64,000 nt of DNA from an uncultured delta proteobacterium (lineage in GTDB: Bacteria > Myxococcota_A > Polyangia > Polyangiales > Polyangiaceae). The notes below the pieces were generated by a model, which did no database searches, had not been told where the DNA came from, and saw nothing but the letters and a program-made list of their open reading frames with translations. Where the stretch lies: contig CAWAIF010000003.1 in assembly GCA_963782055.1 (NCBI GenBank), positions 5,952,001-6,016,000 of the forward strand, given 5' to 3'. Numbering within the stretch: the stretch's first letter is position 1; each line of letters begins with the position of its first letter. The position numbers and the translations under genes are program-made. Positions 10,091 through 62,468 of this stretch are shown in pieces.

Positions 10091-10154
10091 CCTCGCCCCC
10101 AGCCCCGTCTCCGCCTCACCCCCCAGCCCCCTCTCCCTATGAGGGAGAGGGGGA
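10091..10154. repeat. REP-like palindromic element between convergent genes
   Basis: CCTCACCCCCCAGCCCCCTCTCCC-TATGA-GGGAGAGGGGG plus a degenerate half-copy at 10091-10112; a second copy lies at 46637. Confidence 0.75.
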
Positions 10155-10168
10155 GCGTGAGGGGGAGG

Positions 10169-44611: not shown

Positions 44612-45199
44612 ATGGCGAGACTCTCCGATCGCGACCTCGTTGACCGCGCACGCCAGGGTGACGTCGAAGCCTTCGGCCAGCTCGTGCGCCGTCACCAACC
44701 CCGCATTGTACGCCTCGCCATCCACATGCTCCGCGACAGGTCGGAGGCCGAGGACGTCTCGCAGGAGACCTTCATCCGCGCCTACCAGGCCCTCGCCCGG
44801 TTCGACGGCCGGAGCGAGCCGTACACCTGGCTCTATCGCATCGCCGTCAACCTCTCCCTGAACACCATCCGCGCCCGCAAGACCTCCCGCCACGCGGGCG
44901 ACGCCAGCGACCCGCGCCTCGAGGCGCTGATGGTGGAGACCCGCCCGGAGGCCGACCCGCGCAGCGCCGCCGCCGACCGGCAGCAGTACGCGGTGGTCTG
45001 CGAGGGCATCGACACCCTGAGCGAGACGCTCCGCACGACGCTCATCCTGGTGTGCATCGACGGCGTCTCGCACGAGGACGCGTCCCACATCCTGGGCGCG
45101 CCGGAGGGGACGATCGCCTGGCGCGTGCATGAGGCACGGCGCAAACTGAGGGCGTTTCTGTCCCAGCGCGGCTTCGCGCTGGAGGGAGACGAGTCGTGA
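44612..45199 (+). CDS. ECF RNA polymerase sigma factor
   Basis: SDRDLVDRARQGDVEAFGQLV, AEDVSQETFIRAY, TWLYRIAVN, GTIAWRVHEARRKL. Confidence 0.93.
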   Translation: MARLSDRDLVDRARQGDVEAFGQLVRRHQPRIVRLAIHMLRDRSEAEDVSQETFIRAYQALARFDGRSEPYTWLYRIAVNLSLNTIRARKTSRHAGDASDPRLEALMVETRPEADPRSAAADRQQYAVVCEGIDTLSETLRTTLILVCIDGVSHEDASHILGAPEGTIAWRVHEARRKLRAFLSQRGFALEGDES

Positions 45200-46635
45200 C
45201 CGACAAGAAGCTCGACAGCCTGCTCGCCTCCTGGCCCCTGCCCGAGCGCACCCCCCTCGACGTCGACGAGGCGGCCGGACGCGTGGTGGACGCCCTGCGC
45301 GCCGGAGAGAAGCCGCTACGCAGCGCAGCAATCGATGACGCAACGCTCCTTTCGCCGCCGCTTCCGCAGCGTCCGGAAGAGGGGCAAACTTCGCCCCGTG
45401 AGCCATCCGCCGCCCCCGGTCGTCTGACTTTGGGTGGCACCGCCGTGGAGAACAAGATGTCCAAGGAACGAGGTCGGGACCGTACCAGCCGCTCCAGCTT
45501 CCAGGAGCTCGCGAAGCTCGCCAGCATGCCGCCCTCGGCCCCCACCCCCACGCCTCCGCCGACCTCCGCCTCGTCGTCGGGCCCGACAGGCGTCGTGCGC
45601 GGAGAAGAGGCGTCCAGCGACGACTCCGGCATCGTCGATCTGAAGGCCATCGCCACGGCAGACCCCGCCGCCGCGCAGCGCGCGCAGGCGACCCCGCTCG
45701 CCGCGGAGGGACTGTTCGACGAGGACGCGCCCCCGCCGGCCTCCGCCACGCTGCCTGCGCAGTCGGCACCGCCCACCGCGGCTGCCGTCGCGTCCGCCGC
45801 ACCGCCGCCCGTGACCGCCGCCCCGCAGGCCGCGGCCAGGGCCGCCGCGCCTGGCGAGAAGAAGAAGGGCGGAGGGATCGTCATCGCCATCGGCGCCATC
45901 GTCGCGCTCTCTGCGGTGGCGGCGGGCGGCTTCTTCGTCGTCAAGTCACGCTTGCACGCCAAGGAGACGCCGGTGGCCGCCACGACGGTCGCCGCGCCGG
46001 ACACCGCGCAGACGGCCGCGGCCACCGCCACGGCCCCCGCGGCGAGCGTCGCCGACACCGAGCCCTCCGCCTCCGACGACTCCACCAATCTGGACAACCT
46101 GCCGGAGGACAGCCCGCAGAAGGCGCGCCTGCGCAAGATCACCGCCACCAGCGGCAAGCCGATCGCCAAGTCGACCACCGGCACCGACGCCAAGAAGCCG
46201 CCGCCCGCCGGCTCGGTCGATCCCAAGCTCATCGCCAACATCCCGACAGGCGGCGGCGGCAACGGCAACTCCGGAGACTTCAACGACGCGCTGAAGCACG
46301 CGGCCGGCGGCGGCATGGGCGTCGGCAAGGACGCCACGCAGACGGCGGCGGCGGTGCCGACGGGCAACGTGCCGCAGAAGCCCTCGCAGGGCATGGTCGT
46401 CGGGGCGATCGGTCAGGTGCTGCCCAAGGCGCGTAGCTGCGTCAACGAGGGCGAGCCCATCTCCCACGCGACGGTCGTCTTCGGGTCGATGGGCACGGTC
46501 AAGAGCGTCTCGGTCAGCGGCTTCGCGGCGGGCAGGCCGGCGGAGGCGTGCATCAAGGCCGCCCTGGGCAAGGCCAAGGTCCAGCCCTTCGCCGAGCCGA
46601 GCTACAGCTTCCCCGTCACCATCCGCTCCAACTGA
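45196..46635 (+). CDS. Single-pass membrane protein, putative anti-sigma partner
   Basis: Coupled to the ECF gene; Pro/Ala linkers, one TM, C-terminal domain with two Cys resembling myxobacterial TonB-C/AgmX-like domains. Confidence 0.7.
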   Translation: MTDKKLDSLLASWPLPERTPLDVDEAAGRVVDALRAGEKPLRSAAIDDATLLSPPLPQRPEEGQTSPREPSAAPGRLTLGGTAVENKMSKERGRDRTSRSSFQELAKLASMPPSAPTPTPPPTSASSSGPTGVVRGEEASSDDSGIVDLKAIATADPAAAQRAQATPLAAEGLFDEDAPPPASATLPAQSAPPTAAAVASAAPPPVTAAPQAAARAAAPGEKKKGGGIVIAIGAIVALSAVAAGGFFVVKSRLHAKETPVAATTVAAPDTAQTAAATATAPAASVADTEPSASDDSTNLDNLPEDSPQKARLRKITATSGKPIAKSTTGTDAKKPPPAGSVDPKLIANIPTGGGGNGNSGDFNDALKHAAGGGMGVGKDATQTAAAVPTGNVPQKPSQGMVVGAIGQVLPKARSCVNEGEPISHATVVFGSMGTVKSVSVSGFAAGRPAEACIKAALGKAKVQPFAEPSYSFPVTIRSN

Positions 46636-46636
46636 G

Positions 46637-46682
46637 CCTCACCCCCCAGCCCCCTCTCCACTTCGTGGAGAGGGGGGTGAGG
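46637..46682. repeat. REP-like palindromic element between convergent genes
   Basis: CCTCACCCCCCAGCCCCCTCTCCAC-TTC-GTGGAGAGGGGG; same family as 10114. Confidence 0.75.
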
Positions 46683-48821
<2,139 letters not shown>

Positions 48822-48904
48822 ACCCGCGCAATGTCCGCCGAGACGGGAGGGAGCGCAAGGGCAAGCGTCCCCGCCGCCTTCGGGCCGTCGGGTATGCTCG
48901 CGGC

Positions 48905-49837
48905 ATGACGAAGGATCGCAGGTCGAAGGCGCCCTCCATGAGGCCGCCGCCCAGCGGCGGCGCGCGCCATCAGGGCGCGAAGGTCGCGTTCGTGGGACTG
49001 GGCACGATGGGGCGCCCCATGGCCGAGCGGGTGCTCGACGCGGGCTACGCGACCACCGTGTTCAATCGCTCGCCCGGGAAGGGGCGCGCGCTCGCCCAGC
49101 GCGGCGCGAGCGTGGCGAAGACGCCGCGCGAGTGCGTGGCGGGGGCGCAGGTGATCGTGAGCATGGTGTCCGACGCGGCCGCGCTCGAGGCGCTGGCGGA
49201 CGGGCCGGACGGCGCGCTCGCGGGCCTCGCGCCGAAGACGCTGTGGGTGGACATGTCCACCATAGGCCGGCGGGCGGCGCGGGCGTTCGCCGCGCGGGTG
49301 CGCGAGGCGGGCGGCCGCTTCGTGGACGCGCCGGTGAGCGGGACCGTGGGGCCGGCACGGCGCGGCGAGCTCGTCGCCTTCGCCGGCGGCTCGGTGAAGG
49401 ACGTGGCCCGCGCGGAGAAGGTGCTCTCCGCGTTCTGCAGGCGCGTGGTCCACGTCGGGGAGGTGGGGCAGGGGCAGGCGCTCAAGGTCGTGCTCAACGG
49501 CCTGGGCGCCCACCACCTGGTCGCCTTCGCCAGCATGCTCGCGCTGGGGGAGCGCGCCGGCCTGGCGCGGGAGCTCGTCGTCGAGGCCTTCACCACCGGC
49601 GCCTTCGCCTCCCCGAGCTACGTCGGCAAGAAGGCGAAGGTGCTCGCCCGCGACTGGTCGCCGGAGTTCACCCTCGCGCTGACGCAGAAGGACGCCGCGC
49701 TCAACCTGGAGCTGCAGAGGGAGACGGGGCTCAGGCTGCCGGTGATGGAGGAGCTCGCGCGCGCCATCGAGGCGGGGATCGAGATCGGCCTCGGCGACCT
49801 GGACCTCTTCGCCCTGGAGAAGGTCTACGAGCGGTAG
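48905..49837 (+). CDS. NAD(P)-dependent oxidoreductase, 3-hydroxyisobutyrate dehydrogenase family
   Basis: [36 protein letters not shown]. Confidence 0.93.
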
Positions 49838-49894
49838 GAGCTCACCACCCGGACGGCGTTGACGTTGCCCGCGTGGACACGCCGCCGCGCGCGT

Positions 49895-51154
49895 TCACGC
49901 GCGGCGCTCCAGCTCCTCGAGCTGCTCGGCGATCGCGTCCTCGTCGCCGTCGAGGGCCACGCGGAGACCCTTCCGTAGCGCGTCGGAAGCGGACGTCTCG
50001 ATGACGCGCGCGACGCGTGCCTTTCCCTCGGCGTCGAGCAGTGGTCCGAGCGCGACGGCCGCGGCGACGCGCTCGACGGAGCGGGTCGCAGGACCCTCTA
50101 GTGCTCGCCAGAGGATTGCCGAGTCCACCGATGACGCGCGGTAGTTGCCATACCGTGGATCGGCCAACACGGCCAGGTATTCGACCCATTGGCCCATAGT
50201 GTACGCGCCCCGACGAAGGCATAACAGTCCCACGCTCCCAACACAAGCAGCCTCCCGATAAGCCTTGAGCTGGGTGTCAATGGCCCGCCAGAGAGCGTCC
50301 AGCGTACCCAATCCAATCGGATCCCGAGAGCTTACGTGCCATGCGACCGCACCCCCAGCGCGCAAGACAACTACCAATTCGGCACCGTTGCAACGGATTG
50401 CTTCCACATTCTGAAACCCTTGGTAGCAAGGACGACCGCACCGCCGCCCGTACCGTAGCCCCTCGGCCCCGACCGAGACCCAGGCATGGCCTCGAGCGAG
50501 GAATGCCACACCGGCAACGGCGAGCGCGAGCAGGCAGTACTTCACCGCGCCCAACGACACAAGCCCGAGATCCGTCAATACCGCTTGCGTCAAGGCGACA
50601 GACACTGCGATGGCAAGCCAACGCATGTTGCGGCGACGCTGTGAGGAGTCGCCATGAATTAGCAGCTTGAATGTGGTGACGGAGTTGCGCGCCCCCAACC
50701 GCAACCGGCGCCGGATCTCGGCCTCGACAGCGTCACTCTGTACCTCGAGCGCGAGTTCAGGACGGAGCCACCGACGAGAGAAGCACAGATACCTGCGGCC
50801 CCAGCGGTGGCGGCAATACGCATGCACAATACTCTTCCGAGATGCCAACAACTTCGAGCCAACCCAGAGCCCCCTTTCATCGACGCCAACGTTGCCTCCC
50901 CGGACCACAGGTGTCCGATCGCAGAATCGTCCGAGAGCCAGGAGAGGCAGCAATGCCGCCAGCAACGCGGCCACTTCGGCACCGAGCGCAGTGACGCCTC
51001 CGGCCACAAACCGCAGCGATGCACGCAGACACAAACCGCTTACCGCACCGGATAGCACCACAGCGAGGACCAATAACCATCTACGATGATACCGCACGAC
51101 CAACCCAGGCATCATGCGCCGCGCGGCCTCCCGTCCCGATGTCCCCTGCACCAT
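49895..51154 (-). CDS. Protein Z1: membrane protein with variable lower-GC N-terminus and conserved helical C-terminus
   Basis: TM pairs followed by beta-rich segments; last ~75 aa highly similar to 54219..55466; start 51154 or 51115. Confidence 0.7.
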   Translation of the reverse strand: MVQGTSGREAARRMMPGLVVRYHRRWLLVLAVVLSGAVSGLCLRASLRFVAGGVTALGAEVAALLAALLPLLALGRFCDRTPVVRGGNVGVDERGLWVGSKLLASRKSIVHAYCRHRWGRRYLCFSRRWLRPELALEVQSDAVEAEIRRRLRLGARNSVTTFKLLIHGDSSQRRRNMRWLAIAVSVALTQAVLTDLGLVSLGAVKYCLLALAVAGVAFLARGHAWVSVGAEGLRYGRRCGRPCYQGFQNVEAIRCNGAELVVVLRAGGAVAWHVSSRDPIGLGTLDALWRAIDTQLKAYREAACVGSVGLLCLRRGAYTMGQWVEYLAVLADPRYGNYRASSVDSAILWRALEGPATRSVERVAAAVALGPLLDAEGKARVARVIETSASDALRKGLRVALDGDEDAIAEQLEELERRA

Positions 51155-51167
51155 CGCCGTGACTATC

Positions 51168-52370
51168 TCAGGTACGAGGGCCGATGGGTCCGACACCATC
51201 CTCAGGATTCGGAAAGTACGTGCGCGAACGGGGGCCGCCGCCGGCCGTACCCTCGGGGTTCGGGAAGTACAGATCCGCGCGTCGCAATCGTCCACGTGGA
51301 CCACCGACACCGAGGCCATCGGGGGAGTCTGGCGCCGGCATTTCCGTTGCTGCACGAGGGCCACCCACGCCACCGCCGCCGCCGGGGTCGTCCGGCGCAG
51401 GCATCGACCCGCCCCCATCATGGTGCTTGGCCAGCGCCTGTCCCACGAAGTAGCCGATCAATAACCCAACTATTGCCCCAGCCACCATCCCCTCCGGCCC
51501 CTTCCATTTCCAGCCAACGTATCCGCCTGCTACGGCTCCGACGGCCATCGTTCCCTCGACGATGGCAGCGTGCTCTGGGTCAACCCTCTTGGGTGGTGGT
51601 GTATTCGTATCCTTGGATGCAGGACCCTTCTGATCCGTCTTGATACCGACTCCGGAATTTGGTGTCATGGGCTTCGCATGGCTCATGTCGACGCCTTGAT
51701 CATGGCCCCCATGTTGGGCACCTACGGAGTTTGGGTTCGGACCGGGGCCCTGGGATGATGTCCCGCCATCTCCACCTGCGTCGACTCCACCATCCGGGTC
51801 GTCATGCTCCCACCTCCCGGGCGGCATCCCCCTGCGCGGATCCGCCCGGTTCGGGTCGTACCCGTGCCCCAGCGACCCGAGCCACTTCATCACCTCCCGC
51901 CGCTGCTTCTCCATGTGCGCGTGCACGTCCGGCAGGTGGTGCGACGGGTGGCGGTAGCCGCCCGTCGGGTCGAAGCCCGGCAGATCGTGCAGGTGCCCGA
52001 ACATCTCTCCGAGGATAGCAGCCGGATCGCCCTTGCCCAGCGTGCCGCCAGGATTCGACGAGATGGGGATGTTCCCGCCGAAGTAGTGCTTCGAGATGTG
52101 GTCGATCACCTTGCCGATGTCGCTTGGGCCGGGCAGACCCGACCCTGGCGTGTGCGTCCCGAGGTCGCCTCCGCCCAGCCCGAAGGGTCCCCCGAAGTGC
52201 TTCGCGATCTGGCCGATCAGGTCGCCGAGTGAATCGCCCCCGGTGCCGCCGATGACCTGCCCGCTCGGGAGCACGACGCCGGTGCCTTCCTCCGGCGGCC
52301 GCCAGTCGATGCGGCGAGGACCGGTGTACTCCGGCTCCGGCACCTCGTTCACCGCACGGCGTTGCATCAT
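51168..52370 (-). CDS. Protein Y1: constant Gly/Pro/His-rich N-terminus, glycine-zipper TM hairpin, C-terminal repeats
   Basis: ATG overlaps the stop of the X2 remnant; first ~185 aa nearly identical to 55497..56576. Confidence 0.8.
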   Translation of the reverse strand: MMQRRAVNEVPEPEYTGPRRIDWRPPEEGTGVVLPSGQVIGGTGGDSLGDLIGQIAKHFGGPFGLGGGDLGTHTPGSGLPGPSDIGKVIDHISKHYFGGNIPISSNPGGTLGKGDPAAILGEMFGHLHDLPGFDPTGGYRHPSHHLPDVHAHMEKQRREVMKWLGSLGHGYDPNRADPRRGMPPGRWEHDDPDGGVDAGGDGGTSSQGPGPNPNSVGAQHGGHDQGVDMSHAKPMTPNSGVGIKTDQKGPASKDTNTPPPKRVDPEHAAIVEGTMAVGAVAGGYVGWKWKGPEGMVAGAIVGLLIGYFVGQALAKHHDGGGSMPAPDDPGGGGGVGGPRAATEMPAPDSPDGLGVGGPRGRLRRADLYFPNPEGTAGGGPRSRTYFPNPEDGVGPIGPRT

Positions 52371-52483
52371 CCCATCCTCGCCGAGGTGACGCGGTTCGCC
52401 GTCACCAGCACGCGGAAGGTGACGTCCCAGGGCCCGCTCGAGCCCGTCGGATGCAGGCGCCAGCGCACCCACGTCGCGAGGGG
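52367..52483 (-). pseudogene. 3' remnant of gene X2
   Basis: PLATWVRWRLHPTGSSGPWDVTFRVLVTANRVTSARMG; DNA matches 56758..56874. Confidence 0.85.
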
Positions 52484-52560
52484 GCCCGGCGCGTGCGCGA
52501 GCTCAAGCTGCGAGCCGCGGCCGACACGCGACCGCACGACGCCCGCGCCAGAGGGCTCGC

Positions 52561-52938
52561 TCACCTCCCGCGCCGCAGCGCCGCGCGCACCATCCCCACC
52601 GCCCGGTTGACGCTGTCCTCCACCACCGCCGCCTCGAGCCGGAGCACCCGGAAGCCCAGCGACTCGATCGCCGTCTGCCGCCGCGCGTCCGCCTCCGGAT
52701 GCCCCGGCTCCCGGTGCACCCCGCCGTCCACCTCCACGACGAGCCGCTCGCTCAGCGCCACGAAGTCCACGATGTAGCTACCGCCCAGCACGTGCTGCCG
52801 GCGAAACTTCACCCCGCCGCACCGCCGATCTCGAAGCTCCCGCCACAGCATCGCCTCCGATCGCGTCGCGTCCTTTCGCCGCATCCGCCGCGCGTGGTGG
52901 TGAAGGATGCACAGAGAGGGAGCTTCGTGCGGTGCCAT
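52561..52938 (-). CDS. DUF559 (Vsr-like endonuclease fold) protein, copy 1
   Basis: ARRMRR..TRSEAMLWRELR..GVKFRRQH..YIVDF..LVVEVDGGVH..DARR..LGFRVLR. Confidence 0.9.
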   Translation of the reverse strand: MAPHEAPSLCILHHHARRMRRKDATRSEAMLWRELRDRRCGGVKFRRQHVLGGSYIVDFVALSERLVVEVDGGVHREPGHPEADARRQTAIESLGFRVLRLEAAVVEDSVNRAVGMVRAALRRGR

Positions 52939-53051
52939 GCCCTCCCAAGGCGACAGAAGCGTGACAGCCGCCGTCTAGCTACCCGCGAGCACACCGAAGG
53001 CTGGCGCGCTTCTTTCGCCCTCCCGGGCGTGGCACCGCACGAAGCTCCCTC
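52916..53051 (-). promoter_or_regulatory. 136-nt hairpin covering the DUF559 RBS and start codon, copy 1
   Basis: Arms GAGGGAGCTTCGTGCGGTGCCATGCCC / GGGCGTGGCACCGCACGAAGCTCCCTC plus inner stems that covary with copy 2. Confidence 0.75.
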
Positions 53052-53322
53052 GCGCGTGCCTGCGCAACATCGAGGGGAGGCCATTCGCGGGGGAGGGCCC
53101 GTTCCCACCGTTTCTACCGTCCACAGCCCGTCACCAGCGCCCCGAACATCCTCCCCGCCCGAGCGAGCGCGAGCGAGCGATGGGCCGGGGGAGGACGCGT
53201 GCGCGCAGGGCCCACGCGCAAGCTCGCGCGCGCGCCGGAGCCCGTGCACCACGTACCCATCGACCGGCGCGCGCGCGAGCGAGCATGGGCCCGAGCACAC
53301 GCGAGGAGGGGCCCCCCCTCTC

Positions 53323-53463
53323 TCACTCCTGAACGATCACCCCGGGTGCCCGGAGAACACGATCGCATCCATCAGGTGCTCCTCCTCCACCAGCGCCAGC
53401 GTCGGGTGCCCGCGATCGATCCGCACCGTCCCCCCGGCGCGCCCCACCCGCACGCCGCCGCGC
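53323..53463 (-). pseudogene. Duplicated 3' fragment of hutF
   Basis: Near-identical to 58685..58828 (TVRIDRGHPTLALVEEE.LMDAIVFSGHPG). Confidence 0.9.
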
Positions 53464-54124
53464 TCGACGCGCTCGCCGAGGGACCGGACGGCGCGCTCGC
53501 GGGCCTGGCGCCGAAGGCGCTCTGGGTCGACATGTCCACCATAGGCCGGCGGGCGGCGCGGGCGTTCGCCGCGCGGGTGCGCGAGGCGGGCGGCCGCTTC
53601 GTGGACGCGCCGGTGAGCGGGACCGTGGGGCCGTGGGGCCGGCACGGCGCGGCGAGCTCGTCGCCTTCGCCGGCGGCTCGGTGAAGGACGTGGCCCGCGC
53701 GGAGAAGGTGCTCTCCGCGTTCTGCAGGCGCGTGGTCCACGTCGGGGAGGTGGGGCAGGGGCAGGCGCTCAAGGTCGTGCTCAACGGCCTGGGCGCGCAC
53801 CACCTGGTCGCCTTCGCGAGCATGCTCGCGCTGGGCGAGCGGGCGGGCCTGGCGCGGGAGCTGGTGATCGACGCCTTCACCAGCGGGGCGTTTGCCTCGC
53901 CGAGCTACGTGGGCAAGCGCGCCAAGGTGCTCGCGCGCGACTGGTCGCCGGAGTTCACCCTCGCGCTGACGCAGAAGGACGCCGCGCTCAACCTGGAGCT
54001 GCAGAGGGAGACGGGGCTCAGGCTGCCGGTGATGGAGGAGCTCGCGCGCGCCATCGAGGCGGGGATCGAGATCGGCCTCGGCGACCTGGACCTCTTCGCC
54101 CTGGAGAAGGTCTACGAGCGGTGA
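53457..54124 (+). pseudogene. 5'-truncated duplicate of the oxidoreductase gene
   Basis: Near-identical to ~49178..49835; lacks the Rossmann N-terminus; 8-bp tandem duplication (CCGTGGGG) near 53630. Confidence 0.9.
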
Positions 54125-54218
54125 GGGGACCCGCCCGGCAGGCCGGGTCCGCCAGCTCCCGCTCGAGGTCCCACGAGCGATGGATGAGGGCCTCGATCCT
54201 CCGGTCCGTCACACGCGC

Positions 54219-55466
54219 TCAAGCCCGCCGCTCCAGCTCCTCGAGGCGTTCGACGATCGCGTCCTCGTCGCCGTCGAGAGCGACGCGCAGTCCCTGCCGG
54301 AGGGCGTCGGAGGCGCACGTGTCGATGACGTCGGCGACGCGGGCCTTCCCCTCGGCGTCGAGCACGGGCCTGAGCGCAACGGCCGCCGCGACGCGCCGGG
54401 GAGCGGGTTCGTCTGGGCTCTCCACCACACGCCACAAGGTGTCGGGAGGCGCAGCGGCGACGCGGTAGCGGGTCCGCGACGGGGTCGCGATGGCGCGGAG
54501 CTCGCGGACCCATTCGCGTACGGTTTCCTCGTGGCGGTCGAGAACATATGGCCGGTCCACCGCTTGTCGCACGCGTGCATCGAGATGTTGCCGCAAGTTG
54601 ATCCTCCCCCGGTCGGCGCCGACGCCCCAATGGTTACGCAGGTACTGCTGGTTCCGAGCCAACTCCACCAAGAACCACACAACAGCCGGAGCATCCTCGC
54701 CGAGTGCACACAGGAACGCCAGTGCCTGGTCTGGCCTACCGCGTACCACTCTCAAGATTCGCTCCCCGCACGATGCGTCTAGCGGTGTTCGCGATGCCGC
54801 TGCGGCGACCCAGGACACTGGTTTGCCCTGGAACAGCCGCCGCAAGACATCCTGCGACATCCAACCTTCGCGATAAACTCGAACACCGGACCGTTCCAGT
54901 ACAACGGCCCAATCAGCAAACGAGTGCGCCGACACATGATGCTGAACGGGAACGAACTCGCATTCTGCAAGCTGCCTCGTCCAGCGCGGCCTCCCCACTC
55001 GCGACCGCCCGATCCGGAGCGACGCCCACCGCTCGGCATGCCACACGAGTCGGGCCCCACTTCGCAGGCATACACAAGTATTGCCGTCGGCGTCGTAGCG
55101 GATTGAATCGAGAGCATCGAAGCTAACTATCGTGCGCCGGAGCCCGGTCCACGAGGAGAGGACGATCCCGGAGTTACCCATTGAAATCTCACACTTTGCA
55201 AACACGACCAGCGTCGTCCACACGACGGTGACGGCGCTGGCGAGGACGAACCACAGGCCATGAGCAGGTAGGCAGATACTCAACAGGGTAAACAGGCATG
55301 CAAGCGCCATGAAGCAACAGTTAACCCAGTGTGCCGTCGACGCGGCGCCGAGTACGCACGAAACCAGGACCGTCACAGTCGCAGATCCTCTAGGCAGCGA
55401 CTCTTCGCGGGAGGACTTTCCACGGAACGGCGGCGCGTGCAGCCACGATACTGCGAACGAACTCAT
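54219..55466 (-). CDS. Protein Z2: membrane protein, variant of Z1
   Basis: Lower-GC N-terminus with TM segments; C-terminus LWRVVE..RVAAAVAL..LDAEGKARVA..ASDALRQGLRVALDGDEDAI..LEELERRA shared with Z1. Confidence 0.72.
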   Translation of the reverse strand: MSSFAVSWLHAPPFRGKSSREESLPRGSATVTVLVSCVLGAASTAHWVNCCFMALACLFTLLSICLPAHGLWFVLASAVTVVWTTLVVFAKCEISMGNSGIVLSSWTGLRRTIVSFDALDSIRYDADGNTCVCLRSGARLVWHAERWASLRIGRSRVGRPRWTRQLAECEFVPVQHHVSAHSFADWAVVLERSGVRVYREGWMSQDVLRRLFQGKPVSWVAAAASRTPLDASCGERILRVVRGRPDQALAFLCALGEDAPAVVWFLVELARNQQYLRNHWGVGADRGRINLRQHLDARVRQAVDRPYVLDRHEETVREWVRELRAIATPSRTRYRVAAAPPDTLWRVVESPDEPAPRRVAAAVALRPVLDAEGKARVADVIDTCASDALRQGLRVALDGDEDAIVERLEELERRA

Positions 55467-55496
55467 GGAACTCCAGGGATGGAAGTTTGTGAAGTG

Positions 55497-56576
55497 TCAG
55501 GATCGCGGGCTGGTTGGACTCCCGATATCCTCGGGGTTCGGATAGTAATCCCGAGAGCGCGGGCCGCCACTTCCCGTACCTTGCGGGTTCGGAAAGTACC
55601 GGTCTGCACGACGCAGCCGGCTGTGGGGGCCGCTTACGCCGATTCCCTCGGGAGGGTCCGGCGCAGCCATCTCGGTACGCCCCCGTGGGCCCCCGACTCC
55701 CGTACCGCCCGACGGGTCCTCCGGTGCTGGCATCTCGTTCCTGCTGTGCGGACCTCCGCCACCGGATCCTCCGGACGGATCCTCTGGCGGAGGCATACGT
55801 CCAAATTTTGGCGGAGGCACATGTACAAATTCTCTGCGCTCCAGGGCGGCTATTGCCGCCCCTCTGAGGAAGCCTAGTTCGCCTCCAGCGATCAGCCCTG
55901 TCATTCCTCCAGTTACTAAGCCAACAAGCATGCCTATCGCCGTAAACACTGCGACGGTGTAAGCTTCATTAGACTTTTCCCTTTGGATGGCTTCTTTTTC
56001 TTCGTCATCCTGTTGCTCCCATCGTCCGGGCGGGAGCCCCCTGCGCGGGTCGCCCCGGTTTGGGTCATACCCGTGCCCGAGCGAGCCGAGCCACTTCATC
56101 ACCTCCCGCCGCTGCTTCTCCAGGTGCGCGTGCACGTCCGGCAGGTCGTGCGACGGGTGACGGTAGCCGCCCGTCGGGTCGAAGCCCGGCAGATCGTGCA
56201 GGTGCCCGAACATCTCTCCGAGGATAGCAGCCGGATCGCCCTTGCCCAGCGTGCCGCCGGGGTTCGACGAGATGGGGAGGTTCCCGCCGAAGTAGTGCTT
56301 CGAGATGTGGTCGATCACCTTGCCGATGTCGCTCGGGCCGGGCAGGCCCGACCCCGGCGTGTGCGTCCCGAAGTCGCCTCCACCCAGCCCGAAGGGGCCG
56401 CCGAAGTGCTTGGAGATCTGGTCGACGAGATCCCCGAGCGGATCGCTCCCCGTGCCGCCGATGACCTGACCGCTCGGGAGCCGCACGCCGGTACCCTCCT
56501 CCGGCGGCCGCCAGTTGACGCGGAGAGGGCCGGTGTACTCCGGCTCCGGCAACTCGCTCATCGTGTACCGCCTCAT
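55497..56576 (-). CDS. Protein Y2, variant of Y1
   Basis: ATG at 56576 overlaps the upstream stop; same constant N-terminus, different TM hairpin, five C-terminal repeats. Confidence 0.8.
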   Translation of the reverse strand: MRRYTMSELPEPEYTGPLRVNWRPPEEGTGVRLPSGQVIGGTGSDPLGDLVDQISKHFGGPFGLGGGDFGTHTPGSGLPGPSDIGKVIDHISKHYFGGNLPISSNPGGTLGKGDPAAILGEMFGHLHDLPGFDPTGGYRHPSHDLPDVHAHLEKQRREVMKWLGSLGHGYDPNRGDPRRGLPPGRWEQQDDEEKEAIQREKSNEAYTVAVFTAIGMLVGLVTGGMTGLIAGGELGFLRGAAIAALERREFVHVPPPKFGRMPPPEDPSGGSGGGGPHSRNEMPAPEDPSGGTGVGGPRGRTEMAAPDPPEGIGVSGPHSRLRRADRYFPNPQGTGSGGPRSRDYYPNPEDIGSPTSPRS

Positions 56577-56761
56577 CGCGTCCTCGCCGGCGCGACGCGG
56601 GCTGCGGTCCCCGCCACGCGGACGATCGCATCCCACGGATGCGTCGAGCGCAGGCGCCAGCCCACCCCCGCGCCGAGGCCGTCTCCGCCCCGGGACGACA
56701 GCTCGCGCAGGTCCAGCCAGAGCCCATGCTCCCGCAGCTCGCTCATCCCGTACGCGCTCAT
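56573..56761 (-). CDS. 62-aa mosaic mini-ORF X3 (Y-like start plus X-like pieces)
   Basis: ATGA-coupled at both ends; MSAYGMSEL resembles Y2 MRRYTMSEL; LWLDLRELSS and WRLRSTHPWDAIVRV resemble X2. Confidence 0.55.
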   Translation of the reverse strand: MSAYGMSELREHGLWLDLRELSSRGGDGLGAGVGWRLRSTHPWDAIVRVAGTAARVAPARTR

Positions 56762-57174
56762 CCCATCCTCGCCGAGGTGACGCGGTTCGCCGTCACCAGC
56801 ACGCGGAAGGTGACGTCCCAGGGCCCGCTCGAGCCCGTCGGATGCAGGCGCCAGCGCACCCACGTCGCGAGGGGAATGTTCGGGTTGGTCGCCAGGAGCA
56901 CGCGCGGGAGGCCGCCCGCGGGCGGGATCGTGTACGGCCCGGTGCCCGCCGCGATGCTGGTGACCGAGAGCATCGACTGGAACAGCGCCTCATCCTTGCT
57001 CGGGGACGTGTCGAGGTGGAAGTCGACGGTGCTCGTGACCTCGCGCACGTCCAGCCAAAGCACCAGATCCTGGAAGGAGCTGAAACCCATCCAGTCGCGC
57101 TCGCCCTGGATGATGTCGTTGGTGACGCTGGTGCCGCGAATGGTGATCCAATCCTGCAGAACGTATCCGTACAT
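56758..57174 (-). CDS. Protein X2: small beta-rich hypothetical protein
   Basis: AAGGAG RBS; LQDWITIRG..FQDL..DVREVTS..PSKDEALF..NPNIPLATWVRWRL..WDVTFRVL; paralog of X1. Confidence 0.85.
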   Translation of the reverse strand: MYGYVLQDWITIRGTSVTNDIIQGERDWMGFSSFQDLVLWLDVREVTSTVDFHLDTSPSKDEALFQSMLSVTSIAAGTGPYTIPPAGGLPRVLLATNPNIPLATWVRWRLHPTGSSGPWDVTFRVLVTANRVTSARMG

Positions 57175-57188
57175 GGCGAGCTCCTTGG

Positions 57189-57566
57189 TCAGCAGAGGGT
57201 GTTGCCGGTGGCGAGGATGCGGAAGGTGACGTCCCAGGTGGCCGCGGCCGCGTTGAGCTTCCAGCGCGTCCAGGCGCCGATGGGCACGTTGGGGTTGGCC
57301 ACGAGCAGCACGTTGCCCGCGTTGAGGCCGACGCCGAAGCCGCCGGCCGAGAGCTGGGGGGCCACCGCCTCCAGGAACAGCGCCGGGTCCTTGCTCGGCC
57401 CCGTCTCGATGCTCATCGTCGGCGAGCTCGTCATCTCCGCCACGTCGACGAGGAACGTCATGTCCTGAAAGGGGCCCGTGAAGAGCCACTGCCCCACGTC
57501 CTGGATGACGCTCGTGTTCGCGGCGCCGCGGATGGTGATCCAGTCCTGCATGATGATCGGTCGCAT
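57189..57566 (-). CDS. Protein X1: small beta-rich hypothetical protein
   Basis: AAAGGAGG RBS; MQDWITIRG..FQDM..PSKDPALF..NPNVPIGAWTRWKL..WDVTFRIL. Confidence 0.88.
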   Translation of the reverse strand: MRPIIMQDWITIRGAANTSVIQDVGQWLFTGPFQDMTFLVDVAEMTSSPTMSIETGPSKDPALFLEAVAPQLSAGGFGVGLNAGNVLLVANPNVPIGAWTRWKLNAAAATWDVTFRILATGNTLC

Positions 57567-57782
57567 CTTGCCTCCTTTGCTGACGACGCCGCGCCGGGTG
57601 CGGTCGCGGCGAAGACTTGCGGTGAGTGCGCCGCGAGCGCGCGCGACACGGCCCTGCGCAGGCGCGGGCGAAGCGCGCCATCACGCACACGCGAGCGGCG
57701 CGACGGGAGCGATCCGCCGCCGCGCTGCGAGCGTCGCGCCAGGCGACGACTAGGCGCGCGCGCGGACGGCCCGCAAGGACTG

Positions 57783-57810
57783 CTGCCTGCCTGCCTGCCT
57801 GCCTGCCTGC
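57783..57810. repeat. (CTGC)7 simple sequence repeat upstream of the X-Y-Z operon
   Basis: Seven perfect tetramer units. Confidence 0.93.
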
Positions 57811-57942
57811 GCGAGAACCATGCCCACCATCCGATTCCTGATCCCAGACCAGCATGTAGGGCGCAGCATGGCAAGGGTCAGGGAGGTAAAATCCACATCA
57901 CCACTAGTGTGCTGTGAATTAACGCGCACTTGCGTCATCGAT

Positions 57943-58335
57943 CTACCACCCAGGGTGTAGATCCCAGGCCCGCAGCGCCGCGCGCACCATCCCCACCGCC
58001 CGCTTCACGTTCCCCTCCACCACCGCCGCCTCGATCCGGAGCACCCGGAACCCCAGCGACTCGATCACCGCCTGCCGCCGCGCGTCCGCCTCCGCGTGCC
58101 CCGGTTCCTGATGCACCCCGCCGTCCACCTCCACCACCAGCCGCTCGCCCAGCGCCACGAAGTCCACGATGTACGTCGCCGCCAGCACGTGCTGCCGCCT
58201 GAACTTCACCCCGCCGCACCGCCGCGCCTTGAGCTCCTGCCACAGCGCCGCCTCCGATCGCGTCGCGTCCTCCCGCCGCATCCGCCGCGCGTGGTGGTGA
58301 AGGAAGAAGAGAGAGGGAGCTTCGTGCGGTGCCAT
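57943..58335 (-). CDS. DUF559 protein, copy 2
   Basis: Same motifs as 52561..52938; MAPHEAPSL start. Confidence 0.9.
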   Translation of the reverse strand: MAPHEAPSLFFLHHHARRMRREDATRSEAALWQELKARRCGGVKFRRQHVLAATYIVDFVALGERLVVEVDGGVHQEPGHAEADARRQAVIESLGFRVLRIEAAVVEGNVKRAVGMVRAALRAWDLHPGW

Positions 58336-58448
58336 GCCCTCCCCATGGCGGAAGAAGCATGACGGGCGCAGTGTCGCCCCTTCCGCGCACCCGGAAGCCC
58401 GGCGGGCTTCTTCCGCCCTCCGGGCGTGGCACCGCACGAAGCGCCCTC
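58313..58448 (-). promoter_or_regulatory. 136-nt hairpin covering the DUF559 RBS and start codon, copy 2
   Basis: Outer arms as in copy 1; inner stems GGCGGAAGAAGC/GCTTCTTCCGCC and CGGGC/GCCCG. Confidence 0.75.
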
Positions 58449-58684
58449 GCTCGTTCCGTCCCAGCCTCGAGGGCGAGGGCCATCGCGGGGGAGGGCCCGT
58501 CCCCTCCGCGGTCACCGGCAGAAAGTGCTCGGCTCGGGCTCGGGAGGCGTGCGCACGCCGTCCACAGCCCGTCACCAGCGCCCAGGACATCCTCCCCGCC
58601 CGAGCGAGCGACAGCGAGCGATGGGCCGGGGGAGGAGTCGCGCGCGTCAGCGCGCGGCAGGAGGGGCCCCCCCCTTGCCCTTCC

Positions 58685-59827
58685 TCACTCCTGAACGATC
58701 ACCCCCGGGTGCCCGGAGAACACGATCGCATCCATCAGGAGCTCCTCCTCCACCAGCGCCAGCGTGGGGTGCCCGCGATCGATCCGCACCGTCCCCCCGG
58801 CGTCGTCCCACCCGCACGCCGCCGCGCCCTCCAGCGATCCCTCCCGCCAGAGCTGCTCCGCCGGCGTGCCCTCCGCCGGCGAGAACGTCACCCGCGCGCG
58901 GGTGCGCAGCCGCTCGTGCGTCTCGAGGGCGCGCAGGTCGTCGATGGGATCGGTGACGACGTGGCTGTCGATGCCGGTGCACAGCCGCGCCCCCGTCGCG
59001 CGCAGCGCGCTCACGTCGGCGAGGCCGTCCCCCAGATCCCGCTCCGTCGTGGGACAGAGGCACGCGAAGGCGCGCGCCTCGCCGAGCAGGCGCGCCTCGT
59101 GTGGCTGCAGGTTGGTGCAGTGCACCCCGCAGAAGCGATCGGAGAGCACGCCCAGGTCGGCGAGCAGCTCCACCGGGCGCTTGCCGGTCTCCGCCACGCA
59201 CTCGTCCACCTCCCGCTGCTGCTCGGCGACGTGCATGTGGAAGGGCATCGCGTGCGCGCGCGCGTACTCGGCCAGCGGCGCCAGCCAGGCGGGCGGCACC
59301 GCGCGCACCGAGTGCGGCGCCACGCCGACGCGCACCATCGGGTCATCCTTGTATTTTACACGCAACGTCTCCACGTCGCGCAGCACCGCGTCGACGTCGG
59401 GATCGCAGAAGCGGCGCTGCCCGGGCTCCGGCGGCCGCCCCGGCCCCGCGCGGTGGTACGCCACGCGCAGCAGCGTCACGCGCAGGCCCTCCGCCTTCGC
59501 CGCCTCGACGACCCGGTCGGCCAGGATGGTGCGGTCGTGGTAGGGCGTGCCGTCCGGCTGGTGCTGCACGTAGTGGAACTCCCCCACCGTACGCACCCCG
59601 GCGCGCGCGAGCTCGCGGAAGGCCACCCGGCTGATGGACGCGATGGACTCCGGCGTGAGCGAGCTCGCGAGGCGATACATCTGCCCGCGCCACGTCCAGA
59701 AGTCGTCGCGCGGGTCGGGCCCGCGGCGCTGCGCGGCGCCGCGCATGCCGCGCTGGAAGGCGTGCGAGTGCGCGGTCGCGAGCGCCGGCAGCGAGAGCGA
59801 GGCGCCGTCGCGCGCGAGCAGGCTCAC
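58685..59827 (-). CDS. hutF: Formimidoylglutamate deiminase (amidohydrolase)
   Basis: AHSHAFQRGMRG, DDFWTWRGQMY, VGEFHYVQH, APHSVRAV, HMHVAEQ, CPTTERDLGDG. Confidence 0.93.
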   Translation of the reverse strand: MSLLARDGASLSLPALATAHSHAFQRGMRGAAQRRGPDPRDDFWTWRGQMYRLASSLTPESIASISRVAFRELARAGVRTVGEFHYVQHQPDGTPYHDRTILADRVVEAAKAEGLRVTLLRVAYHRAGPGRPPEPGQRRFCDPDVDAVLRDVETLRVKYKDDPMVRVGVAPHSVRAVPPAWLAPLAEYARAHAMPFHMHVAEQQREVDECVAETGKRPVELLADLGVLSDRFCGVHCTNLQPHEARLLGEARAFACLCPTTERDLGDGLADVSALRATGARLCTGIDSHVVTDPIDDLRALETHERLRTRARVTFSPAEGTPAEQLWREGSLEGAAACGWDDAGGTVRIDRGHPTLALVEEELLMDAIVFSGHPGVIVQE

Positions 59828-60366
59828 TGGCGCATCTGGGAGGCGGCCGCCTTGGTCACGTAGAAGTAGCGCGGCCAGTGGCGGTAGTACGTGACGCGCA
59901 TGATGGGGCCGCCGTCGGTCGGGTCCACGTCCTCGCCGAAGACGCCGACCAGCCGGAGCAGCGAGCCGCCGCCCACCGAGTGCTCGCCCACGTCGTCCTC
60001 GCCGTGCAGGGCGACGTTGGCGTGGACCACGCCGAAGTCGGCGTCGCTCACCGTGACGCGGCAGGTGTCCTCGTCGGAGTGGCTCTCGCAGAGGTTGCGA
60101 GGCTCGAGGCGCCGGACGCTGAGGGTGAGGTACGCGCCGCCGCCGGGGCCGGAGCCGCGGTTGGTCACCACGCCGAAGAGGGCGACCGGCTTGCCGCGCC
60201 ACTGGTCCGGCTGCCGCTGGAACATGACCGGGTCGTACTCCTTGGCGCCCTGCACCGCCTTCGCCTCGTCCGGGAGGGGGGCGTAGTTCACCGAGTGGCC
60301 GTACTTCCCGCCCCCGCCGCAGGCCACGAGCCCCACGAGCGCACACGCCATGAGCCAGGATCGCAT
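59824..60366 (-). CDS. Hypothetical lipoprotein
   Basis: MRSWLMACALVGLVAC lipobox; stop overlaps the hutF start. Confidence 0.75.
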   Translation of the reverse strand: MRSWLMACALVGLVACGGGGKYGHSVNYAPLPDEAKAVQGAKEYDPVMFQRQPDQWRGKPVALFGVVTNRGSGPGGGAYLTLSVRRLEPRNLCESHSDEDTCRVTVSDADFGVVHANVALHGEDDVGEHSVGGGSLLRLVGVFGEDVDPTDGGPIMRVTYYRHWPRYFYVTKAAASQMRQ

Positions 60367-60434
60367 GGCGCGGACCTTGCCAAAAAAGGGCATCGCCCGC
60401 AATCGCGAAGGGAGCGGCCTCCCCGACCTCAGGC

Positions 60435-62435
60435 CTACCCCGACACCGTCGGCGCGTCCTCCCCCGCAGCCGTCCCCCGCGGCTTCCCCGCCCGCGCCCT
60501 CAGCACCAGCTCCACCACGAGCAGCGCGAGCAGCGCGAGCGCGACGCGCGACGAGATGTCCACCAGCGTGCGCGTCGCGCCCAGGTGCGTGCCCGCCGCC
60601 TTCGCCGCCTTCGCGCGCGGACGCAGGTCCACCTCCCGCGCGACCGGCGCGGCCACCCGTAGCTCGTCCTCGTCGCCGTCCTTGATGTGGTAGGCGCCGA
60701 TGAGCGGCGGGGACACGTGGGCGCGCGTGCCGTCACGGACGACGTCGATGTCGGCCCCCTTCGTCTTGCTGCCGTCCGCGAGCACCCGCGGGGCGAGCGT
60801 CACGTGCGCGGAGGGCGAGACCGTCCACAGCGCGCCGACGTCGGTGCGGCGCGGCCGGGCGCGCACGCGGGCGAGATCGGCGAAGGCGTCGAGCAAGGTC
60901 AAGAAGCCGGGCCGCAGCACCAGATCGCTCTGGTCGGCGGAGAAGGGGAGCGTGACCACCCACGCCTCGCCGCGGCCGATGTGCCTGCGCGCCACGAGCG
61001 GCGCGCCGTCCGACCACGGCACCAGCGTCTCGAACGCCGACAGGTCCTCCGGCGCGAGGGTGGCGCGATGCGTGGCGCGGAGATCCGCCAGGCTCGCCGT
61101 CGACTCCCCGAGCAGGTCCCGGGCCTTGTCCGCGTCCGCCCCGCGCGCCGAGGTCTCCCCCCACGTCACCGCGCGCGTGACGATGGGCTCGAGCGAGGCG
61201 CCGAGCGGCGCCGCCGCCGCGCGCGGCCCGAGGGCGAGGAGCACCACGCCGCCGCGATCCATGTATCCTGCAATGGATCGCCGCTGCTCCGGCGTGAGGC
61301 CGGGCGGGTCGTCCAGGATCACACCTAGGAACGGCGCCAGATCCTCGGCGCGCTCGGGGACGGCGGGGATGGGCTTCACCGCGAGGTCGAGCCGCAGCGC
61401 GGAGAGCGCCTGCTCCAGCACCGGCGGCCCGCCCGTGGCGACGCTCTCCTGCGCGGCGTCGGCGACGATCGCCAGCGCGCCCGGCCCGCCGGAGACGACG
61501 ACCGGCGCCTCGTCGTCGGCCGCGATGGCGTCGGCGCCGTCCAGCCGTGCGACGAGGTTGGTCTTCGGCGCGTCCTTGGGGAGGGCGACGGTGATCTCCC
61601 CGGCGGCGCCCGGCGCGCTCGCGATCGACTTGCCGGCAGAAGCGATCTCCACCGTCCGCCCGTCCGCCGAAGCGCCCTTGCCGCAGGCGACGCGCACGCG
61701 CACGCGGCCGCCGAGATCGTCGGCGGAGAGCACCGCGCAGTCCGGCGCGTCCTTCGCGATGTCGTCGAGCGGCACCCACACCGGGAGGCTGGCCGACTCC
61801 CCGACAGGCGGCGCGTCGGGCCGACCGTCCGCCAGATCGGACAGCACGATGACCCGCTTGTCGACCTGCGGCAGCTTGTCCACGAGCGACTGCGCGATGG
61901 TGATGGCGCCGTCCAGGTCGGTCGCGCGGTCGCTCGGCGCCACGGTGTCGAGGGCGGCGCGGGCGGCGGCGAGATCCGTCGTGGCGGCCAGGCCGACGCG
62001 CGGCGGCGCCCCGGCGAGGACGATGGCGACCGCGTCCCCTTCCCGCGCGCCGGCGAGCAGGTCCGACGCCGCGTCCTTCGCGCGCTCGAAGCGGGTGCGA
62101 CCGCCGGACGCCGGCGCGCGCATGCTCATGGAGTCGTCCAGCACGATGGCCAGCGCCATGGAGGCGCCGGAGGAGCGCTCCACCGAGAGGCGCGAGCAGC
62201 GCACCAGCGGCGAGGCGCCCAGCAGCGCGAGCGCGGCGACGGCGAGCGCGCGCACGATGAACAGGGAGCGGTCCTCCAGGCGGGCCCGGCGACGAGCGCG
62301 CGGCGGCGCCGGCGCGACGAGGTGCGCGGCGGCGAAGGGGCGCTCGTCGGCGCGCTGCCGGCGCAGGCGGTGGGCGAGCAGCGGCAGCGCCACGAGGGCC
62401 ACGATCCCCAGGGCCAGCGCCGTGACGAAGCTCAC
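60435..62435 (-). CDS. BatA-like N-terminal TM plus vWA domain protein
   Basis: MSF..AL..LPLLAH; MIDAS DDSMSM; VLSD; C-terminal TM. Confidence 0.85.
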   Translation of the reverse strand: MSFVTALALGIVALVALPLLAHRLRRQRADERPFAAAHLVAPAPPRARRRARLEDRSLFIVRALAVAALALLGASPLVRCSRLSVERSSGASMALAIVLDDSMSMRAPASGGRTRFERAKDAASDLLAGAREGDAVAIVLAGAPPRVGLAATTDLAAARAALDTVAPSDRATDLDGAITIAQSLVDKLPQVDKRVIVLSDLADGRPDAPPVGESASLPVWVPLDDIAKDAPDCAVLSADDLGGRVRVRVACGKGASADGRTVEIASAGKSIASAPGAAGEITVALPKDAPKTNLVARLDGADAIAADDEAPVVVSGGPGALAIVADAAQESVATGGPPVLEQALSALRLDLAVKPIPAVPERAEDLAPFLGVILDDPPGLTPEQRRSIAGYMDRGGVVLLALGPRAAAAPLGASLEPIVTRAVTWGETSARGADADKARDLLGESTASLADLRATHRATLAPEDLSAFETLVPWSDGAPLVARRHIGRGEAWVVTLPFSADQSDLVLRPGFLTLLDAFADLARVRARPRRTDVGALWTVSPSAHVTLAPRVLADGSKTKGADIDVVRDGTRAHVSPPLIGAYHIKDGDEDELRVAAPVAREVDLRPRAKAAKAAGTHLGATRTLVDISSRVALALLALLVVELVLRARAGKPRGTAAGEDAPTVSG

Positions 62436-62468
62436 CGGTGGTGACCTACCACGCGCCCCCCGGGCCCG

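Follow-up and report, generated by a model that had tools for sequence, protein, structure and literature searches.

The weapons of myxobacteria beyond type VI secretion systems (T6SS), outer-membrane exchange and Tad-like killing are poorly known. The SitA toxins of outer-membrane exchange carry a lipoprotein signal and a lipobox. Here we analyzed a locus within a 64,000-nucleotide stretch of DNA (the window) from an uncultured member of the Polyangiaceae (GenBank assembly GCA_963782055.1, contig CAWAIF010000003.1, positions 5,952,001 to 6,016,000 of the forward strand), in which genes of three kinds, designated X, Y and Z, form two stacked copies. With moderate confidence, we read it as a reduced, two-allele member of an undescribed polymorphic effector-partner family of myxobacteria that is marked by arrays of jelly-roll proteins, in which Y would be a membrane-active effector and Z its partner.

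Several described systems resemble parts of the locus; the comparisons made here and below draw on parts of the cited papers. Two features of polymorphic toxin systems in general are present: an exchangeable segment beside constant parts, seen in the two Y proteins (Y1 and Y2) and in relatives, and an adjacent partner that changes with the effector, here by linkage only. As in the contact-dependent growth inhibition (CDI), Rhs and MafB systems (PMC3482391), there are stacked cassettes, lower-GC exchangeable blocks, an adjacent partner and JAB-type cargo domains, but the variable part is here N-terminal or central, not C-terminal. The type IV secretion system (T4SS) effectors of Xanthomonadales (X-Tfe/X-Tfi) have a conserved C-terminal region, XVIPCD, and an upstream partner gene (PMC6759196). 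The cargo cassettes of the present family are like them in joining a variable N-terminal effector, cell-wall hydrolases included, to a constant C terminus, with an upstream partner that is sometimes a lipoprotein. They differ in that the tail is here a low-complexity repeat without a Pfam or NCBIfam match, and the jelly-roll array is without a counterpart in those systems. The Cdz system of Caulobacter crescentus pairs a glycine-zipper toxin with a small membrane immunity protein (PMC5380434); the likeness lies in a glycine-zipper protein beside a membrane partner, whereas Y is a protein of 360 to 400 amino acids (aa) with a constant Gly/Pro region and a tail, and Z, a PH-fold protein of 415 aa, contrasts with the small CdzI.

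For their part, X proteins resemble XepA/YomS (PMC6834076) and phage cement proteins in being single jelly-rolls of 125 to 140 aa without a signal peptide, but there is no sequence match, and the X genes form chromosomal tandem arrays instead of belonging to a phage structural or lysis module. Z shares with YdbS/YdbT and DdE/DdF (PMC8657885) the alternation of transmembrane hairpins with PH folds and the position beside a leaderless and, in the case of Y, putatively membrane-active protein; it differs in having an additional conserved helical C-terminal domain, in lacking an above-cut-off Pfam match and in belonging to a large myxobacterial family. Y1 and Y2 contain no Cys and no hydrophobic or signal-like N terminus, and thus lack the lipoprotein character of SitA. 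The locus would work in the manner of known toxin-immunity cassettes, but by the diagnostic features examined it falls outside the CDI, Rhs/T6SS, T4SS-XVIPCD, contractile, SitA and Cdz systems. Searches of open-access full text listed no description of the system, which is probably undescribed; tables of predicted toxin systems in supplements could hold one.

Organization of the locus

All X, Y and Z genes of the locus lie on the minus strand, and the order proposed in a preliminary description of this DNA, namely X1, X2, X3, Y2 and Z2 followed by an X2 remnant, Y1 and Z1, the latter copy without X1 and its upstream region, was present as described:

57567..57942, minus strand: X1 upstream region, only in the complete copy
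57189..57566, minus strand: X1, 125 aa, unnamed X family (X hidden Markov model, E value 2e-37), jelly-roll predicted by homology to X2
56758..57174, minus strand: X2, 138 aa, predicted single jelly-roll of the X subtype found ahead of cargo modules in relatives
56573..56761, minus strand: X3, degenerate remnant of X type, 62 aa, which overlaps the X2 stop and the Y2 start
55497..56576, minus strand: Y2, 359 aa, with a Gly/Pro-rich constant N terminus (1-188), a variable middle with a hydrophobic hairpin, and a repeat tail
54219..55466, minus strand: Z2, 415-aa membrane protein with the Z-family helical C-terminal domain and an N-terminal architecture distinct from that of Z1
52367..52483, minus strand: X2 remnant, 117 nt, 100% identical to the X2 3' end
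51168..52370, minus strand: Y1, 400 aa, with the N terminus of Y2, a different middle with a glycine-zipper hairpin, and a repeat tail
49895..51154, minus strand: Z1, about 419 aa, with two modules of transmembrane hairpin plus predicted PH/PTB fold and a helical C-terminal domain

The reading frames of X1, X2, Y1, Y2, Z1 and Z2 are open. X1 and X2 are paralogues with 39% identity, and the downstream copy has lost X1, the 5' part of X2 and the upstream region. X3 has a counterpart in a related locus (L027), where a 70-aa open reading frame (ORF) stands before the X2-type gene. No family reached the threshold for X, Y or Z in searches of Pfam, NCBIfam, PHROGs and PADLOC.

Cargo cassettes in related loci

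Both Y proteins end in repeats of P[ND]PE..GG.PRS. The preliminary description stressed the N terminus as the shared part of Y; at the level of the family, the constant part is the C-terminal region. A search with the tail yielded 36 representatives and 15 longer proteins (four in both sets). Thirty of the 36 representatives were read, and all of the other six but P0148 were already known from loci or other searches. Among the thirty, about ten show, by eye, a hydrophobic hairpin rich in glycine immediately ahead of the tail, the N termini of several look folded and are unrelated, and one protein (P0151) is a false positive. Searching with full-length Y retrieved three host proteins and P0004 alone among 8000 candidates, and one weak, probably chance match in 200 genomes of the host family; the first tail profile matched its training genomes alone among 401 genomes, in a type of genome scan that scores 12 to 14 candidates per genome and therefore under-counts.

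The arrangement seen in the window recurs in two other organisms. When JGI metagenomes were scanned for nothing but the tail motif, a single locus (L061) came up, on an unrelated contig and in the order X2-Y-Z, and in genome G031 (L034) a Y-Z pair lies upstream of a six-gene X array that is followed by a second tail-bearing cargo. Two more candidate pairs, P0132-P0055 and P0156-P0042, have equal-sized source contigs as their only basis. The expected linkage of Y and Z in other genomes was therefore borne out in L061 and G031, but most Z loci lack a Y.

Other relatives carry exchangeable cargos. In genome G182, a seven-gene X array is followed by a stack of three cargos, two of which are each preceded by an X2-type gene and a partner gene, and L062, L033 and L162 contain two stacked cargos each. 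In the four stacked pairs measured, the first 110 aa were 16 to 20% identical and the last 170 aa 51 to 92% identical, the shared C-terminal region being of Gly/Pro/Asp type. The N termini include a phage lysozyme (E value 5e-30), a JAB-like domain (6e-4, below the cut-off) and helical regions, and most have no Pfam match. Partner genes encode FGE-domain proteins in L027 and twice in L162, and other lipoprotein-like proteins elsewhere, and they differ by cargo in L027, L062 and L162. FGE domains act as immunity proteins in T6SS pairs (bioRxiv 10.1101/2021.05.21.445229), and JAB domains occur among polymorphic toxins (PMC3482391). The proposal of stacked variable cassettes was thereby supported, with effector-like cargos and immunity-like partners behind the X arrays of relatives. 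The effector-partner reading is supported by the recurrence of X2-Y-Z in the independently found L061, by stacked cargos that share their C termini and not their N termini, by the lysozyme and JAB-like N termini, and by the FGE partners.

In other families, the stacked cargos behind X arrays share, by eye, a short N-terminal leader and not a C-terminal tail (L105, 2055-2855 and 4601-5674; L117, 1056-3958; L113, 3646-7240). Some tails contain NPxY/F-like motifs, which are possible ligands of PTB-like folds; the cargos concerned are without Z. The host genome also encodes a 585-aa tail-bearing protein with a helical N terminus and without X (L118, 7085-8842), surrounded by insertion sequences and with an Rhs-like gene nearby.

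A swapped lower-GC block joins Y and Z

Y1 and Y2 are 88% identical in their first 188 residues, 13% in the middle and 69% in the last 78 residues. The first 188 residues differ by 22 amino acid and 26 silent codon changes. The shared N-terminal region of the preliminary description was thus confirmed, "near-identical" being slightly strong for 88%, and the abrupt switch after PPGRWE to a lower-GC middle was evident both from the fall in identity and from the G+C content at third codon positions (GC3), which was 0.89 to 0.90 in the Y N termini, 0.62 and 0.45 in the middles and 0.62 to 0.65 in the tails. Relatives of Y from four organisms break before the variable middle at one motif, GG.P..WW, which corresponds to PPGRWE. 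A glycine-zipper hairpin had been assigned to each Y. Y1 matches Gly-zipper_Omp of Pfam at an E value of 4e-4, below the curated cut-off; Y2 has no match but has a hydrophobic segment at 203-232.

In Z, GC3 was 0.67 and 0.70 in the N termini of the two copies and returned to 0.87 to 0.89 in the last 62 codons. Each copy thus contains one continuous, foreign-looking lower-GC block that extends from PPGRWE in Y, by way of the Y tail, up to the C-terminal domain of Z; the tail belongs to the block because GC3 stays low through it and recovers only in those last Z codons. The C termini of Z1 and Z2 differ by 17 silent and 11 replacement changes. Lower-GC N termini and a conserved C terminus were found in Z as proposed, but Z2 is not a full-length diverged Z1: its last 111 residues alone align with the Z family profile, and the part common to Z1 and Z2 comprises the last 107 to 111 residues. 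The front of Z2 appears to consist of a single membrane-plus-PH module along with another copy of the C-terminal domain, which is degenerate (weak self-match, E value 0.03). The co-variation of the Y middle and the Z front, read earlier as a sign of pairing, does exist in the window, but it is accounted for by physical linkage, because both are one piece of DNA.

X proteins: distribution and predicted fold

Relatives of X2 were found in 13 of 200 genomes of the family, and the X profile matched 17 of 401 genomes of the phylum, the host included; these scans likewise under-count. A large protein database gave 259 X2 matches; none of the 120 listed bears a Pfam family or a name, and the named organisms with X2-type genes are Polyangiaceae or Myxococcales. 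Among 37 distinct X loci, 31 contain at least two X domains and 13 at least four. In eight of the 37, X is fused to a 230-aa C-terminal domain that matches the phage virion structural family phrog_10356 (E value 2e-23) and that we take to be LamG-like.

The model of X2, built from 58 sequences (pLDDT 82), is a single jelly-roll, and on this prediction X can safely be placed in that fold class. Its structural neighbors are XepA (Z score 9.1; root mean square deviation [rmsd] 5.0; 115 residues aligned), the cement protein Bbp16 of BPP-1 (3j4u_H; 8.7; 8.5; 114), CBM86, a carbohydrate-binding module (CBM) (8.7), the Carin1 cement protein (8cjz_B; 8.2; 3.4; 110) and the KHP40 cement protein (7dou_4; Z score 7.6), with PirA and Ena fiber subunits just below. 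Neighbors of X in the Atlas are mostly viral, with 0.92 to a cluster that bears Bbp16. These neighbors offer a lead toward descent of X from phage cement proteins. Foldseek found no match for X in the PDB at an E value of 0.001 or less, and a separate Foldseek search gave four weak viral matches; sequence searches of the PDB with the X alignment, the Z alignment and the X-fused domain yielded nothing meaningful. A prophage location of X and Y was considered and dropped, the viral contigs containing neither a tail match nor an X2 relative (0 loci), and no capsid or tail genes were seen in the X loci that were read. X proteins have no Cys pattern and no signal-like N terminus. A complex prediction of X1, X2 and the Y2 tail scored 0.00; its controls were not folded, and the result is uninformative either way.

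Several observations concern the surroundings of the arrays. A GT2 glycosyltransferase gene stands beside the X array in eight of the 37 loci (L100, L101, L102, L103, L107, L112, L115 and L067), mostly outside the host family; its nearest NCBIfam family is SunS-like, far below the cut-off, and it may modify X or the cargo. In L162 (14711-16178), a small beta-rich pair, consisting of a 125-aa protein and a fusion to the virion-type domain, occupies the X position before stacked FGE-cargo modules; it does not align with the X profile (hhalign, 0.3%), whereas the fused domain does, and there are weak matches to DUF6385 and phage tail proteins. Genome G025 has four X arrays, two of which are followed by related signal-less, tail-less beta-helix-like proteins (L031, 12390-16168; L032, 7002-8150). 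A kinase-LanC enzyme of the class III/IV lanthipeptide type is encoded between two X pairs in L035 (8806-11868) and is preceded by a Cys-rich ORF. Sites resembling those of sigma-54 occurred in 4 of 33 upstream regions, compared with 6 of 282 control genes, a weak signal, and the window has a weak one (five of seven scored positions) about 260 bases upstream of X1. Near-consensus sites lie upstream of the arrays of L030, L034 and L102, and a gene for a sigma-54-type activator stands directly upstream of the G031 array (L034, 11474-12451).

The Z family

The model of Z1 (26 sequences, pLDDT 82) resembles FERM-F3, PTB and PH folds at a Z score of about 12. The Atlas gave a lead to bPH_6, and one Z homologue has a sub-threshold match to bPH_10. 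Seven zipper-plus-tail genes had a readable context: a Z homologue directly follows five of them (three in the host; three genomes in all), the sixth has a convergent membrane/PH-like ORF (hhalign 25%, E value 8e-4), and the seventh an unrelated two-helix membrane ORF. The non-hairpin cargos that were seen have lipoprotein-like partners in place of Z. Y thus predicts Z to a degree; Z, being common and mostly alone (see below), does not predict Y. A large and scattered partner family recruited beside effectors would be compatible with an immunity role. Z-family genes also form tandem runs, two to four genes long, that resemble poly-immunity arrays (G110 C1, 5776727-5782104; L134; L147).

Secretion machinery

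In agreement with the preliminary description, no Rhs, FHA, VENN, VgrG, PAAR or LXG match was found in X, Y or Z with Pfam and NCBIfam. The T6SS sheath PF05943 was not found in the host genome (97% complete) or in four of five relatives, and the contractile sheath PF04984 was not found in five of five genomes; a single tube-like match was sub-threshold and corresponds to a lone gene 0.8 Mb away. VirB4 (PF03135) was not found in five of five genomes, VirD4 not having been searched, and no type I secretion genes, which in the Cdz system are adjacent, lie at 44000-64000 of the window, the part of the genome that was searched for them. The host and its relatives have a type III export gate, which may be an export route; its co-occurrence is uninformative because FliP is near-universal in the family (138 of 171 genomes). 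The export-gate genes of the host, FlhA-like and FliP-like, are scattered singly (G000 C3, 3066446-3068293 and 6390716-6391318).

Proposed mechanism and alternatives

In the effector-partner reading, rows of X jelly-rolls would stand before an exchangeable cargo, likely an antibacterial effector, and its likely immunity partner. Damage to membranes would come from the hydrophobic glycine-rich hairpin of Y, and the producer cell would be shielded by the membrane protein Z. Y and the other cargos presumably leave the cell without a Sec signal, and in the host family the low-complexity C-terminal repeat region may serve as a loading, export or processing signal. X as the carrier is our hypothesis: its subunits may co-assemble into a ring, fiber or coat for carriage or display of the cargo, and in complete arrays the fused virion-type domain would be a tip adhesin. 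The second allele, which lacks X1, X2 and the upstream region, could be an immunity reserve or the donor of a spare block. We put forward only tentatively, as a rather doubtful extension, that several X paralogues form a ring, fiber or shell with the fused adhesin at its tip, a stand-alone delivery structure derived from phage capsid cement and a virion adhesin domain, which would load signal-less effectors, in the host family by the C-terminal repeat tail, and deliver them to neighboring cells without T4SS, T6SS or contractile tail; the window would then hold a minimal two-subunit version with two pore-forming alleles.

If correct, the effector-partner reading would give the predatory myxobacteria of soil a further class of toxin-immunity pairs and perhaps a delivery structure as well. 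No curated family covers X, Y, the tail or Z, yet arrays of X occur in about 6% of the genomes of the family and across the phylum, so that searches with the X gene and the tail can lead to many effector domains that are unannotated. Because one genome has both alleles, cognate and noncognate pairs can readily be compared. A carrier derived from phage cement would be a new instance of capsid domestication, distinct from tail-derived machines.

A number of results weigh against the effector-partner reading. The Z family is present in 114 of 201 genomes of the family, often in multiple copies, and neither X nor the tail lies within 1.5 kb of any of 27 non-training Z loci, figures that do not fit the earlier view of Z as dedicated to Y; in the host genome itself, four of about ten Z loci adjoin a Y. 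PH-domain membrane proteins have also been tied to bacteriocin export and not to immunity (PMC8657885). Three of the five Y loci of the host genome are broken. Common beta-sandwiches reach fold scores like those of X (7 to 9), and one carbohydrate-binding module scores as high as the cement proteins. With a repeat pattern written after the tails had been seen, 29 non-Y cargo ORFs contained at least two repeats in seven cases, one in two and none in 20, among them all 11 cargo ORFs from other families. Tail genes without X exist (L003, L118, L160 and L161, the last two near contig ends), and several cargos of X arrays are not toxin-like, being beta-helix, Kelch, beta-propeller, serine hydrolase or subtilase proteins.

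Other explanations of the system were weighed against these data. The X arrays could build a surface appendage or coat, such as a fiber like Bacillus Ena or a cement-like lattice, sometimes glycosylated, with displayed adhesins, identity tags or hydrolases, and not toxins against kin, as cargos, Y included, and Z as a receptor or signaling partner. This would suit the Ena1/2/3 fiber subunits and CBMs among the fold neighbors of X (Z scores of 6.7 to 8.7), the GT2 genes beside the arrays, the many beta-helix, Kelch, propeller or hydrolase cargos and the PH/PTB folds of Z, which are peptide-binding modules in eukaryotes; we nevertheless consider it unlikely, since conflict systems better account for the lysozyme and JAB-like N termini, the FGE partners and the stacked swap cassettes, and X has neither a Cys pattern nor a signal-like N terminus. 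Less probable still is that Y is a glycine-zipper bacteriocin and that Z, in the manner of YdbS/YdbT or of DdE/DdF of enterocin DD14, assists export or membrane transport and is no allele-specific immunity protein. Z shares its layout of membrane helices and PH folds with those proteins, deletion of DdE/DdF affects bacteriocin transport (PMC8657885), and Y has no Sec-like signal. The Z N termini, however, were swapped together with the Y middle at lower GC, the number of modules differs between Z2 and Z1, and cargos without a zipper have lipoprotein-like partners instead of Z.

The link between Y and Z could also be incidental, Z being a large, mobile, general family of membrane proteins and the window a decaying cargo shuffled by a DUF559 element (see below) and devoid of current function. 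The abundance of Z, mostly alone, points this way, as does the position of all X/Y copies of the host behind the DUF559/repeat element, three of the five being broken; we assign this explanation a similarly small probability, given the open frames of the six genes, the excess of silent over replacement changes in the Y N termini (26 and 22) and Z C termini (17 and 11), and the recurrence of X2-Y-Z and Y-Z in two other organisms. Finally, the repeat tail might be the precursor of repeated modified peptides, similar to ribosomally synthesized and post-translationally modified peptides, processed by nearby enzymes, with the rest of Y as a leader. A PR/S-like motif closes the repeats, L003 is a tail-only ORF, and a kinase-LanC enzyme occurs in one array and GT2 in eight. 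We find this most improbable: the window encodes neither a modifying enzyme nor a protease or transporter, the tail is attached to folded enzyme domains such as lysozyme, and the cargos at GT2 loci are mostly tail-less.

Origin of the two stacked copies

Comparison of the window with itself revealed two tandem duplication units, 49173-53463 and 53452-58827, each with a DUF559 element. The flanking features are as follows:

48905..49837, plus strand: intact 3-hydroxyisobutyrate-dehydrogenase-like gene, left flank, containing one duplication breakpoint
52561..53330, minus strand: DUF559 element copy 1, with the gene at 52561-52938 and an upstream palindromic repeat
53304..53463, minus strand: duplicate of the amidohydrolase 3' end; about 12 bases (53452-53463) are common to both duplicated pieces and form the junction
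53452..54124, plus strand: dehydrogenase duplicate without its 5' end, frameshifted by an 8-bp duplication
57943..58680, minus strand: DUF559 element copy 2, with the gene at about 57943-58335 and an upstream repeat
58685..60346, minus strand: intact amidohydrolase gene, right flank (Amidohydro_1, E value 1e-29; presumably a formimidoylglutamate deiminase), containing the other breakpoint

The breakpoints lie inside the dehydrogenase-like and amidohydrolase genes, and the repeat spacings of 4287 and 4279 in the dehydrogenase duplicate match the 8-bp duplication. Stacking thus corresponds to a duplication that reaches into flanking housekeeping genes, which argues against the downstream orphan module of CDI/Rhs-type recombination that had been proposed. 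The dehydrogenase duplicate differs from the intact gene by 15 silent and 4 replacement changes plus 7 and 3, giving 22 silent and 7 mostly conservative changes in a patchy distribution. Because the differences are rich in synonymous changes and patchy, we favor an origin in a sister strain over neutral decay after duplication in place; judging from the sequence, the second allele likely came on sister-strain DNA that was integrated as a tandem duplication.

As for the stacking alone, it appears improbable that the assembly merged two strains that occurred together and each had a single allele here. In such a chimera the flank copies would differ as orthologues do, and so they do here; in one public DNA run both alleles occur as exact short contigs at similar depth (2 to 3.6), and the junction is unspanned among the pieces of that run listed. 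Against a chimera, the contamination of the genome is 0.29%, and a strain switch would produce neither a dehydrogenase duplicate that lacks its 5' end and is frameshifted by 8 bp nor a junction between two different genes across about 12 common bases.

The host genome contains three further partial copies:

L001: X1-X2-Y3 (frameshift)-half Z
L002: Y front fused to Z end
L003: tail-only ORF

It also has 20 DUF559 matches by tblastn and 55 matches to the repeat, the copies being 67 to 85% identical. Every X/Y copy of the host genome starts directly behind a piece of the DUF559/repeat element, cut at differing points. The combination of a DUF559 nuclease-like gene and a palindromic repeat gives a pattern as if the element moved or deleted the DNA downstream of it. 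In L001 (about 6100-6183 and 9182-10768), a fragment like the 3' end of a neighboring carboxylesterase gene lies beyond the X-Y-Z cassette, together with an inverted repeat copy, and this fragment echoes the duplicated gene ends of the window.

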